A DNA stretch of 64,000 nucleotides from Nannocystis bainbridge (lineage in GTDB: Bacteria > Myxococcota_A > Polyangia > Nannocystales > Nannocystaceae). This document shows, piece after piece, positions 15,034 through 61,441 of this stretch (positions within the stretch are counted from its first letter, which is position 1; each line of letters begins with the position of its first letter). The translations under genes and the position numbers were made by a program. Below the pieces are notes generated by a model, which saw only the letters and a program-made list of their open reading frames with translations, searched no databases and was not told where the DNA came from. The DNA is taken from the NCBI RefSeq assembly GCF_028368995.1, contig NZ_JAQNDL010000001.1, positions 3,072,001 through 3,136,000 on the forward strand, given 5' to 3'.

Positions 15034-15122
15034 GGCGCGGGTTATAGCCCGACCGCGCCGCCCGCGAACCCGCGAAACTCGCCGGCTCGCGTGAGGCGCG
15101 GCGACCTGCGGGTCGCGCGACC

Positions 15123-15156
15123 AAAACAAAAACGCCGAGGAGAGCGTCCTCGGCGT
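15123..15156 (-). terminator. Rho-independent terminator after the tRNA
   Basis: Stem ACGCCGAGGA/TCCTCGGCGT followed by a T-rich run on the minus strand. Confidence 0.8.
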
Positions 15157-15240
15157 GGTGCGAAGGGAGGGACTCGAACCCTCACAGGTTACCCCACCAG
15201 ATCCTTAGTCTGGCGCGTCTACCAATTCCGCCACCTTCGC
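15156..15240 (-). tRNA. tRNA-Leu, anticodon AAG
   Basis: GCGAAGG acceptor stem, D-loop AATTGGTAGA, anticodon arm CCAGA-CTAAGGA-TCTGG, long variable arm, GTTCGAGTC T-loop, A73 and encoded CCA. Confidence 0.93.
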
Positions 15241-15285: not shown

Positions 15286-16737
15286 TCACAGGTTCGGCGG
15301 GGGAGGCAAGCTCTCCCCGACCACGTGGAGCTTGAGCAGGTTCACGGACTTGTGATCTTTCACCGGGTACCCGAGGGTGATCACGACGCGGTCCCCGCGC
15401 GCCAGCATTCCGCGGCTGAGGATGAGCCTTTCGATGTCGACGAAGATGCTGTTGCCGTGCGGGCTCGACACCGTGAAGAGCACCGGGACCACGCCCCAGT
15501 ACACGGCGAGCGCCTGGTAGGTCGCCGGGTTCGGCGTGAACGCGAAGATCGGCACGCGCGGGCGGTAGTCGCTGACGAGGCGGGCGATCCCGCCGGACAC
15601 CGTGTACGTCACGATCGCCTTGGTGTCGGGCAGCGACTTGCAGCAGACGACCGCGGCGCGGGCGATCGCGTTGGTCGAGTGGCCGAGGTCGAGGTCGGAC
15701 GGCTCTCGCCAGTAGCGCTCCTGGCGCTCGATCGAGCGCACGATCTTGTCCATCGTGTGCACCGCCTGCAGCGGGTACGCGCCCGAGGCTGTCTCTCCGG
15801 ACAGCATCACCGCGTCGGACCCGTCGAGCACCGCGTTGGCGACGTCGGACGCCTCGGCGCGGGTCGGCCGCGGGTTGCGGATCATCGAGTCGAGCATCTG
15901 CGTCGCCGTGATCACCAGCTTGCCGACGCGGTTGGCCAGCTCGATGCCCTGCTTCTGGATCACCGGCACCTCCTCGGGCCCGATCTCCACCCCGAGGTCG
16001 CCGCGGGCGATCATGATCCCGTTCGACACCTCGAGGATCGACTTCAGGTTGGTGACCGCCTCGGGCTTCTCGATCTTGGCCACGATCGGCACCACCCGCC
16101 CGTACTCCTCCATCATCGTCCGCACCGCCAGCACGTCCTCCGGCTGACGCACGAACGAGATCGCCACCAGGTCGACGCCCAGCTCGAGCGCGAACCGCAG
16201 GTCCTCCTTGTCCTTCTCCGTGATCGACGGCAGCGACAGGTGGACCCCCGGCAGGTTGACGCCCTTGCGCGACGTCAGCAGGCCGCCGGTCACCACCTGC
16301 GTCTTGATGTCTGGGCCCTCGACGCCGGTCACGCGCACCTCGAGCGCCCCGTCGTCCATCAAGATGCGGTCGCCCGGCTTCACCTCGCCGGCCAGGTGCG
16401 GGTAGTCGATCGCCACGCGACCCGCCTCGACCTTGGCCTCGGGGTCGACGCTGAGGATGAACTCTTCGTTGGCCTTGAGCTCGAGGCCCGGCGCGGGGAT
16501 CTTGCCGACGCGGATCTTGGGCCCCTGCAGGTCGGCGAGCACCGCCACGGCGATGTCGCGCGCCGACGCCTCGCTCCGGATCGTCTGGAACACCCGCGTG
16601 TGGTCCTCGTGCGACCCGTGCGAGAAGTTGAGGCGGGCGACGTTCATGCCGGCCGAGATGAGCGCGCCGATCTGGTCCTGGCTCGAGGGACCGATCGTGC
16701 AGACGATCTTGGCGCGGCGAAGAGGCGGAAGCGACAT
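15286..16737 (-). CDS. pyk: Pyruvate kinase
   Basis: KIVCTIGP, ARLNFSHG, DLQGPKIR, AKIEK, ARGDLGVE, ATQMLDSM, MLSGETA. Confidence 0.97.
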   Translation of the reverse strand: MSLPPLRRAKIVCTIGPSSQDQIGALISAGMNVARLNFSHGSHEDHTRVFQTIRSEASARDIAVAVLADLQGPKIRVGKIPAPGLELKANEEFILSVDPEAKVEAGRVAIDYPHLAGEVKPGDRILMDDGALEVRVTGVEGPDIKTQVVTGGLLTSRKGVNLPGVHLSLPSITEKDKEDLRFALELGVDLVAISFVRQPEDVLAVRTMMEEYGRVVPIVAKIEKPEAVTNLKSILEVSNGIMIARGDLGVEIGPEEVPVIQKQGIELANRVGKLVITATQMLDSMIRNPRPTRAEASDVANAVLDGSDAVMLSGETASGAYPLQAVHTMDKIVRSIERQERYWREPSDLDLGHSTNAIARAAVVCCKSLPDTKAIVTYTVSGGIARLVSDYRPRVPIFAFTPNPATYQALAVYWGVVPVLFTVSSPHGNSIFVDIERLILSRGMLARGDRVVITLGYPVKDHKSVNLLKLHVVGESLPPPPNL

Positions 16738-16932
16738 GGCGCGCATCATGCCATGACGCCCCGGCCCCGCCATATCCCGCCGCGGTGACGCGTTTGCCAC
16801 GACGCACACTTCGTCCGCGCACCGCGCGCGTTCGTTCACGTGCTCGCTTCAGCCTGCCAATTCACGCGCCCAGCCCGGGCATGCACGATTTGTCTGCGAC
16901 TGCGCCGAGCTGCGGGCAACGGACCAGCCCGC

Positions 16933-60532: not shown

Positions 60533-61441
60533 GTGCAGAGCCTGGCGCAGGACGAAGAGGACACCCTCGAAGCGGGCACCCTCGTCGCGACCTACTTCCG
60601 CGTGCTCGAGTTCATCGGCCCCGCCAACTTCGGCGATCTGTACCGCGGCGAGCACATCCAGATGGGCAGCCGCTGCGCCGTGCGGGTGCTCAGCCCGCAG
60701 TGGAAGAGCCTCGTGCGCGGCGACGAGGACGTCGACCGCTTCCGCCGCATGGCCCGCGCCGCCAGCGACACCTCGCACCCCAACATCGCGCAGGTGTTCG
60801 ACGGCGGCCGGCTGGCCGACGGCCGGCTGTTCCTGGTCACCGAGCTGCTGGTCGGCAGCAGCCTGTTCGAGGCCGTCGCCGAGCGGCGCTACCTGCCGGT
60901 CCTGCGGGCCGCGCGGATCCTCCGCGACGTCGCCCGGGCCGTGCGCGCCGCCCACAACGCCGGCCAGGTCCACCGCGACCTCAAGGCCGAGAACGTCATG
61001 CTCGTGCCGCTGCCCGACGGCGACGGCGAGGCCGTGCAGGTGCTCGACTTCGGCATCGCCGCCTGGGCCGAGGCCGAGGCGCGCAAGCAGAACCCCGGCG
61101 CCTTCGTGGCCACGCCCGAGTACATGGCCCCCGAGCAGGTGCTGGGCAAGCCCGCCAGCCCGCTGTTCGACATCTACGCCATGGGCGTGATGCTGTTCGA
61201 GGCCCTCGTCGGCGAGACCCCGTTCTCCGGCAACCCGCAGGCGCTGATGAAGGCCAAGGTCGCCCGCCCCGCACCCTCGCTCGCCAGCAAGCTGCCCGGC
61301 ATGCCGCGCCGCCTCAGCGAGCTGGTCGACGACTGCCTCCACACGGACCCCGGCCTGCGGCCCCAGAGCGCCAACGAGTTCGTGGTCCGCATCGAGGAGA
61401 TCCTCCGCACCTTGAACCGGACCTCGGGCCCGCAGACATGA
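60533..61441 (+). CDS. Ser/Thr protein kinase-like protein (Hanks type), possibly pseudokinase
   Basis: HPNI, HRDLKAEN, LDFGIA, TPEYMAPE, DIYAMG; Gly loop GPANFG and AVR in place of AxK; start estimated. Confidence 0.85.
   Translation: MQSLAQDEEDTLEAGTLVATYFRVLEFIGPANFGDLYRGEHIQMGSRCAVRVLSPQWKSLVRGDEDVDRFRRMARAASDTSHPNIAQVFDGGRLADGRLFLVTELLVGSSLFEAVAERRYLPVLRAARILRDVARAVRAAHNAGQVHRDLKAENVMLVPLPDGDGEAVQVLDFGIAAWAEAEARKQNPGAFVATPEYMAPEQVLGKPASPLFDIYAMGVMLFEALVGETPFSGNPQALMKAKVARPAPSLASKLPGMPRRLSELVDDCLHTDPGLRPQSANEFVVRIEEILRTLNRTSGPQT

Follow-up and report, generated by a model that had tools for sequence, protein, structure and literature searches.

A tRNA-Leu(AAG) gene stands in place of tRNA-Leu(GAG) in families of GC-rich myxobacteria and has the anticodon loop of tRNA-Arg(ACG) except at position 35

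How is CUC, one of the commonest codons of a GC-rich bacterium, read when a leucine tRNA of that bacterium is encoded with A at position 34? The question is raised by a stretch of 64,000 nucleotides (nt) from Nannocystis bainbridge (G000:C1:3072001-3136000, hereafter the window; the assembly, G000, has 11.05 Mb and 71.5% GC), which carries a gene for tRNA-Leu with the anticodon AAG. In bacteria, tRNA-Arg(ACG) together with the deaminase TadA is reportedly the universal system for inosine at position 34 (I34; Wolf et al. 2002). We counted codons in 3858 long open frames of the window genome with high GC at third positions (2.03 million codons). CUC accounts for 42.8% of the leucine codons (44.5 per 1000 codons), which bears out an initial annotation of the window that had called it a dominant codon, and CUG for 51.2%; CUU makes up 1.35% (1.4 per 1000 codons) and CUA 0.4%. 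As CUC is 32 times as frequent as CUU, an unmodified A34 would pair correctly with a codon that is hardly used and mispair with one of the commonest. The answer we consider probable is that TadA deaminates A34 to inosine, and that the resulting tRNA-Leu(IAG) decodes CUC.

The gene (Table 1) matches the full RF00005 model (positions 1-71) with 59.8 bits (gathering score 29; E = 8e-12). Its acceptor stem has 7 Watson-Crick pairs and its D stem 3, typical of class II tRNAs; the anticodon stem CCAGA/TCTGG encloses the loop CUAAGGA, the variable region of 13 nt forms a long variable arm, and the T arm reads GAGGG-TTCGAGT-CCCTC, with the T-loop GGTTCGAGTCC. The CCA is preceded by a discriminator A; A73 is an identity element for LeuRS. 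The features of a class II tRNA-Leu (long variable arm, leucine anticodon, discriminator A73) are thus all present. Terminator-like sites at the locus numbered 2, against 0.3 expected from shuffles. The initial annotation had taken the gene for a canonical class II tRNA-Leu that has the anticodon AAG, ends in CCA and is followed by a terminator of its own, and ARAGORN, RF00005 and the terminator scan confirm that description.

We analysed the conservation of the gene among relatives. A BLAST search with the 85-nt tRNA against 40 relatives gave a match in each genome, and ARAGORN, run on the 30 best-match loci, called AAG in 25, CAG in 4 and GAG in 1; 23 of the AAG loci come from the window's own family, 1 from family f5 and 1 from family f8. 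The AAG copies vary in a paired manner in the anticodon stem (CCAGA/TCTGG or CTAGA/TCTAG), the T stem and the variable arm, while the loop is fixed, a pattern of purifying selection; within the genus the gene is 98% identical. We also searched 301 genomes of the class with the pattern GGYAGAC, 8 N, YTAAGR, a gap and GTTCRANYC. It was found in 77 of them, and the reversed pattern, used as a control, had 0 matches. A sample of 401 genomes of the phylum included 85 with the AAG pattern. Beyond the class, the pattern occurred in families f40 (32/34), f56 (9/9, a hand count of rows), f69 (3/3) and f72 (2/2), and gave no match in f43 (0/29), f47 (0/11) and f41 (0/9). A sequencing or assembly error at 15206, with GAG or UAG as the true anticodon, had been raised as a caveat in the initial annotation. 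It has next to no probability, because the same A stands in 25 of 30 loci of independent relatives and in the 77 genomes of the class, together with linked changes at positions 32 and 38. By its structure and conservation, the tRNA-Leu(AAG) gene is genuine, conserved and functional-looking.

To compare its distribution with that of tRNA-Leu(GAG), we ran the same pattern with G at position 34 on the same 301 genomes. The GAG pattern matched in 190, both patterns matched in 3 (G000, G005 and G010, all of the window genus), and 37 genomes had neither; of the 77 AAG genomes, 74 gave no GAG match, and of the 190 GAG genomes, 187 gave no AAG match. In the window's own family (f1, counted without G000), AAG was found in 42 and GAG in 3 of 46 genomes, in f19 in 17 and 0 of 18, and in f22 in 2 and 0 of 2. 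AAG was found in none of the genomes of f2 (GAG in 19 of 21), f7 (21 of 22), f10 (35 of 46) and f13 (12 of 14). Two families are divided by genus: f15, with AAG in 9 and GAG in 33 of 44, and f29, with AAG in 3 and GAG in 10 of 15. Within the window's family but outside its genus, the GAG pattern had no match in 41 of 41 members. Likewise, the weaker BLAST matches in 13 AAG genomes, 20 leucine tRNAs, comprised CAG (11), UAG (7), CAA (2) and no GAG. The possibility that tRNA-Leu(GAG) is missing, raised as a question in the initial annotation, therefore holds for the family outside the genus and fails in the window genome, which has two GAG-type copies; tRNA-Leu(UAG), for which the same had been asked, is present there according to whole-genome ARAGORN.

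The origin of the gene can be traced from its neighbourhood and its body. We compared 4-kb loci with 37 AAG and 38 GAG tRNAs (at a 38th AAG locus, L123, ARAGORN made no call). The gene upstream of the window tRNA, encoding pyruvate kinase, is a conserved neighbour of this tRNA gene in synteny across relatives, and it directly matches the gene upstream of the GAG tRNAs in G212 (323 bits), G130, G097 and G050. In f15, the upstream gene is common to AAG and GAG loci, with scores of up to 376 bits. When the loop is left out, the window tRNA shares 82-85% identity with GAG tRNAs of other families, compared with 68% with the UAG tRNA and 71% with the chromosomal CAG tRNA of its own genome. The higher body identity to GAG tRNAs and the common upstream gene point to a G34-to-A34 switch at a resident GAG gene, and not to the U34-to-A34 switch that the initial annotation had suspected; the likeness of the body to tRNA-Leu(UAG), on which that suspicion drew, does not stand up to these identities. 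The AAG gene is the positional counterpart of tRNA-Leu(GAG) and, as far as sequence can tell, replaces it in whole families of GC-rich myxobacteria.

The two kinds of tRNA differ in more than position 34. In the AAG tRNAs the loop is YUAAGGA in 37 of 37, with A38 in all, C32 in 34 and U32 in 3. GAG tRNAs have UUGAGG(G/U) in 38 of 38, and C32 and A38 occur in none of them. For tRNA-Arg(ACG), 74 of 80 genomes of the class have the loop CUACGGA or, less often, CUACGAA; that of the window genome, CUACGGA, equals the leucine loop CUAAGGA at 6 of 7 positions, the sole difference being position 35. In the portion of bioRxiv 10.1101/2023.09.19.555891 available to us, Streptococcus pyogenes TadA is described to edit tRNA-Arg(ACG) as well as tRNA-Leu(AAG) with the consensus YUAMGRA, which the myxobacterial loop fits exactly. 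The same source reports that editing by E. coli TadA is confined to UACG in the context YUACGAA, that streptococcal tRNA-Leu(AAG) is not edited by that enzyme, and that base 35 makes a single hydrogen bond in the Staphylococcus aureus TadA-RNA structure (2B3J).

This loop bears on the possibility that A34 stays unmodified, pairing with CUU in Watson-Crick fashion and reaching the remaining CUN codons through loose wobble ('superwobble'), as in Mycoplasma tRNA-Thr(AGU); CUC would then be read poorly by the AAG tRNA or by tRNA-Leu(UAG). Tolerable tRNAs of this kind do exist in four-fold boxes, as the available parts of two reports indicate (bioRxiv 10.64898/2026.05.15.725136; PMC11066159). We nevertheless regard an unmodified A34 as unlikely, since with the observed ratio of CUC to CUU, and with GAG not found in nearly all AAG genomes, it would deprive one of the most frequent codons of a good reader; nor would it explain why the AAG tRNAs have the Arg(ACG) states at positions 38 and 32.

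ARAGORN made a second, atypical tRNA-Arg(acg) call of 73 nt in the window genome (G000:C2:2558231-2558303), with the loop CUACGGA and an unusual D arm and T arm. A tRNA-Gly(acc) call of this genome, a candidate for a second unusual A34 tRNA, was rejected as a false positive without a T-loop.

We searched for the enzyme that could edit such a loop. The TadA of the window genome aligns end to end with the structures 7CPH, 2B3J and 1Z3A (E from 1e-42 to 1e-38), and a search of 80 genomes (32 AAG genomes and 48 others) yielded a TadA orthologue in 76. The genome also encodes a second deaminase of the cytidine deaminase (CDA) fold, whose best NCBIfam match is TadA (Table 1), and A34 might be deaminated or otherwise modified by this or another enzyme distinct from the housekeeping TadA. 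This is very unlikely: the second deaminase scores below the 150-bit TadA cut-off, and the mimicry of the loop points to an enzyme that reads the Arg(ACG) loop. Furthermore, at E <= 1e-25 the second deaminase was found in only 3 of the 80 genomes (2 among the 32 with AAG, 1 among the other 48), so it does not track AAG, and we rejected it as a dedicated editor. The initial annotation had proposed a TadA of broadened specificity. The loop, equal to that of tRNA-Arg(ACG) except at position 35, and the single TadA orthologue agree with a second substrate; the part of the proposal that concerns editing is our reading of these sequences.

In about 40 of the 76 genomes with tadA (a hand tally), the gene for tRNA-Arg(ACG) directly precedes tadA on the same strand, at a distance of no more than about 400 nt. 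In the window genome, tRNA-Arg(ACG) is at C2:629423-629497, and tadA lies 1.9 kb downstream.

The proposed course of events is as follows. An ordinary tRNA-Leu(GAG) gene would change in place from G34 to A34, its product being a working tRNA-Leu for CUY codons. Accompanying changes of U32 to C and of N38 to A would make the loop CUAAGGA copy CUACGGA except at position 35. The single TadA, which must already edit tRNA-Arg(ACG), would then most likely also deaminate A34 of tRNA-Leu(AAG), and the tRNA-Leu(IAG) would pair with CUC (43% of the leucine codons), CUU and CUA. We infer transcription of the gene, the editing to inosine and the role of TadA from what is seen directly, namely the gene and its conservation, the replacement of GAG, the convergence of the loop, the codon usage and the presence of TadA.

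Several observations weigh against this course of events or fail to bear it out. In an alignment of 76 TadA proteins (32 from AAG and 44 from GAG genomes), no residue changes consistently with AAG across five lineage contrasts, and the most discriminating columns (positions 154, 69, 58 and 77 of the window genome's protein) are lineage-specific. This lack of a TadA signature would also suit an unmodified A34; otherwise, either the enzyme of the phylum is already permissive, or each lineage found its own solution. There is no obvious gain from I34 over G34 where CUU and CUA are almost unused. A scan for sigma-70-like promoters found 0 sites at the locus, though the sigma-70-like consensus is not informative for Myxococcota. 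A search for sequencing runs found 21 from metagenomes or metatranscriptomes, with word shares of 0.20 or less, and none from an isolate. In four metatranscriptome runs (X7, X8, X13 and X15), 19 contig pieces matched the locus with 90-99% likeness. These are leucine tRNAs of other organisms; most cover no more than the conserved half with the D arm and then continue into unlike sequence, and no difference is listed at 15206. One X15 contig spans 15158-15241 with 3 differences, whose positions are not listed. The pieces bear on neither editing nor expression. Finally, since one GAG-type tRNA-Leu of the window genome scores 43.8 bits, the AAG tRNA need not be the sole reader of CUC there.

This GAG-type tRNA belongs to a tight array of diverged members (Table 1), transcribed in the order Pro(UGG), Leu(GAG), Leu(CAA), 'Tyr(GTA)' (called by ARAGORN only), Leu(CAG), Leu(CAG) and Leu(GAG). 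The RF00005 scores of the leucine tRNAs are 43.8 (a GAG copy), 50.8, 47.5 and 30.5 bits. The lowest is that of the first Leu(GAG) copy, which has C33 and a mismatched anticodon stem; Leu(CAA) and 'Tyr' fall below the gathering score. The array bodies share the T arm with the AAG tRNA, to which they are 71-81% identical. Arrays of this kind were observed in the window genus alone, with more copies in the congeners G001, G003, G005, G007 and G010. With two GAG-type tRNAs at hand, one of them scoring 43.8 bits, the AAG gene could be redundant or decaying in the window genome while the array does the work. We consider this highly improbable, as the AAG tRNA scores higher, has no structural defect and is nearly invariant across the genus, whereas the array is confined to the genus and has degenerate members.

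The congener G008 has a second, array-type tRNA-Leu(AAG) (L166:1600-1683, G008:C1065) beside tRNA-Pro(GGG), with the stem CGGGC/GCCCG and the loop CUAAGGA; an array-type copy has thus also taken the A34 loop.

Table 1. Positions of the gene for tRNA-Leu(AAG), its parts and its neighbour in the window, and of related genes elsewhere in the window genome (with contig prefix)
Feature	Position	Strand	Evidence or remark
tRNA-Leu(AAG) gene, class II, 85 nt including encoded CCA	15156-15240	-	ARAGORN; Rfam RF00005
Anticodon AAG	15204-15206	-	A34 = 15206 (T on + strand), A35 = 15205, G36 = 15204; ARAGORN: anticodon at position 35 of the 85-nt gene
Anticodon loop C32-U33-A34-A35-G36-G37-A38	15202-15208	-	sequence reading
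3' CCA, genome-encoded	15156-15158	-	sequence reading
Intrinsic-terminator-like hairpin, 10 pairs (7 G-C), then T tract TTTTGTTTTG	15122-15156	-	terminator scan; begins at the CCA
Pyruvate kinase gene, 45 nt upstream of the tRNA, same strand	15286-16839	-	Pfam PF00224, 409 bits; PF02887, 97 bits
Leu tRNA array beside tRNA-Pro(UGG)	G000:C2:2356727-2357382		whole-genome ARAGORN: two gag, two cag, one caa
Whole tRNA array including Pro	G000:C2:2356727-2357510 (L169:4728-5510)	-	tight, diverged members
TadA gene	G000:C2:631361-631864		NCBIfam NF008113 equivalog, 159.8 bits (cut-off 150 bits); sole one passing in the genome
Second CDA-fold deaminase, TadA-like	G000:C1:167933-168409		best NCBIfam match TadA, 68.5 bits

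A second ARAGORN tRNA call in the window, a 90-nt 'tRNA-Arg(cct)' at 60796-60885 (+), is probably a false positive, as it is without a GTTC-type T-loop and resembles GC-rich coding sequence; several further ARAGORN calls in the window genome are of this sort.

How often has the switch occurred? A tree of the tRNAs (loop masked, 79 columns), poorly resolved, has 6 changes between AAG and GAG on its best topology, of which well-supported branches force only 1; the TadA tree likewise has 6 on the best topology, with only 1 forced by well-supported branches. The approximately unbiased (AU) test of a single clade of all AAG genomes gave p = 0.049, a borderline value. The division of f15 and f29 by genus requires more than one change of state, in whichever direction. 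In addition, the C31-G39 pair typical of GAG tRNAs is kept with the new loop in three AAG groups (g81 of f15, g82 of f29 and the second copy in G008), which suggests that these are separate, more recent switches. GC content as a driver was rejected: it does not differ between the fetched AAG and GAG loci (0.660 for 37 versus 0.653 for 38).

Two tRNA-Leu(AAG) genes of f56 (G495:C146:1326-1381 and G562:C74:6302-6357) have the loop UUAAGGU, in which A34 is combined with U32 and U38 as in GAG-type loops. They may represent intermediates of the switch, or A34 tRNAs that are not edited.

The remodelled tRNA is present well beyond the myxobacteria. A scan of species-representative genomes for the GGTAGAC...CTAAGGA form gave at least 120 stretches, and ARAGORN called tRNA-Leu(aag) in 119 of the 120 matches listed. 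Since the pattern demands the CUAAGGA loop, the scan gives presence only, not frequency or convergence. By record names, at least 66 stretches belong to Verrucomicrobiota (many labelled Akkermansia or Akkermansiaceae), at least 20 to Pseudomonadota (mostly metagenome-assembled genomes of Alphaproteobacteria) and at least 8 to Myxococcota (with labels including Nannocystis and Haliangium), with at least 1 more from a Bradymonadales record whose name does not give the phylum. Bacillota/Clostridia, Planctomycetota and Gemmatimonadota each have at least 4, Actinomycetota and Deferribacterota each at least 2, and Bacteroidota, Bdellovibrionota, Saccharimonadota and Thermodesulfobacteriota each at least 1; at least 5 come from records without a phylum label. 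The CUAAGGA-loop tRNA-Leu(AAG) is thus found in records named for at least 12 phyla, and among the matches listed the Verrucomicrobiota include Akkermansia muciniphila, Luteolibacter and Rubritalea. The matches listed that are closest to the window tRNA (90-94% identity) are records of Myxococcales, Deltaproteobacteria and Haliangium and one 'uncultured proteobacterium'.

We cautiously favour the view that A34 tRNAs have replaced tRNA-Leu(GAG) recurrently and convergently, and not in the lactic acid bacteria alone. The switch would have happened several times at the same locus within Myxococcota, positions 32 and 38 being rebuilt each time into the Arg(ACG) loop so that the existing TadA gains a second substrate, and it would also occur in GC-rich genomes, where inosine brings no useful decoding range. 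Because the loop-remodelled tRNA occurs in records of so many phyla, a two-substrate TadA may be widespread in bacteria. With no useful decoding range in GC-rich genomes, the gain may be of another kind, such as a difference in speed or accuracy between I:C and G:C pairing where a codon is very frequent; alternatively, the switch may be a neutral ratchet. Entire families of soil bacteria with large, GC-rich genomes seem to rely on the AAG tRNA to read a codon with a share of about 4.5% of all codons, which is of relevance to codon optimisation and to heterologous expression of myxobacterial natural-product genes. The interest of the case lies in its GC-rich setting, the clean convergence of the loop and the natural AAG and GAG sister lineages. 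If editing is confirmed, the myxobacterial TadA would be a natural two-substrate enzyme, with a recognition rule readable from the convergent loop changes, and the AAG and GAG sister genera of f15 and f29 would be natural pairs for the study of deaminase-tRNA co-evolution. In that case the explanation given for Lactobacillales, recoding of AT-rich leucine codons, could not be the general reason for the switch.

The literature on bacterial tRNA-Leu(AAG), in the parts available to us, places it in Bacilli, Mycoplasma and Prochlorococcus, and 'almost all' such genes in one class (PMC13249217). No myxobacterium is named in this literature, including the main texts of PMC13249217, bioRxiv 10.64898/2026.05.15.725136, PMC8007984 and PMC6063277, and the preprint among these mentions neither Verrucomicrobia nor Akkermansia, the latter being absent also from the papers searched for it; figures and supplements, which may list other phyla, lie outside this scope. 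Like Mycoplasma tRNA-Thr(AGU) and the engineered ANN tRNAs in E. coli (bioRxiv 10.64898/2026.05.15.725136), the myxobacterial tRNA has A34 encoded in a four-fold box. The Mycoplasma-type unmodified A34, however, is found in AT-rich, reduced genomes where the U-ending codon is common, while here the U-ending codon is nearly unused. The eukaryotic tRNA-Leu(AAG) edited by ADAT2/ADAT3 has the same anticodon and likewise puts I34 where G34 would stand in the CUN box. Its editing enzyme is a heterodimer that makes relaxed demands on sequence and needs the entire tRNA, whereas here there is one TadA-type gene and the loop appears remodelled to fit.

The resemblance to tRNA-Arg(ACG) is closer. Both tRNAs have the loop C32-U33-A34-N35-G36-G37-A38 on a 5-bp stem, presumably share the enzyme, and would serve mainly a C-ending codon (CGC makes up 64.7% of the arginine codons in the window genome). 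They differ in position 35, which is A and not C, and in that the leucine tRNA is of class II.

The closest known system is that of Lactobacillales, in which editing of tRNA-Leu(AAG) to IAG by TadA was demonstrated in vivo and in vitro and the AAG and GAG families are mutually exclusive (PMC13249217; PMC11472039/bioRxiv 10.1101/2023.09.19.555891). Hosts with tRNA-Leu(IAG) include Oenococcus oeni, Streptococcus pyogenes, S. mutans, Lactobacillus and Lactococcus (PMC13249217; PMC11472039). As in these bacteria, a class II tRNA-Leu with A34 is found in the myxobacteria instead of GAG at the level of the family or genus, tRNA-Leu(UAG) is kept, the loop fits YUAMGRA, and the genome has a single homodimer-type TadA. 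The genomic setting is different: the myxobacterial host has 71.5% GC, with CUC at 43% and CUU at 1.4% of the leucine codons, whereas Lactobacillales are AT-rich with UUA dominant, and there the switch goes with more CUU and CUC at the cost of UUA. The leucine and arginine loops differ here at position 35 alone, compared with positions 35 and 37 in S. pyogenes. Editing, demonstrated in Lactobacillales, is deduced here from sequence, and every feature of a TadA-edited tRNA-Leu(AAG) that can be read in this way is present in the myxobacterial case.

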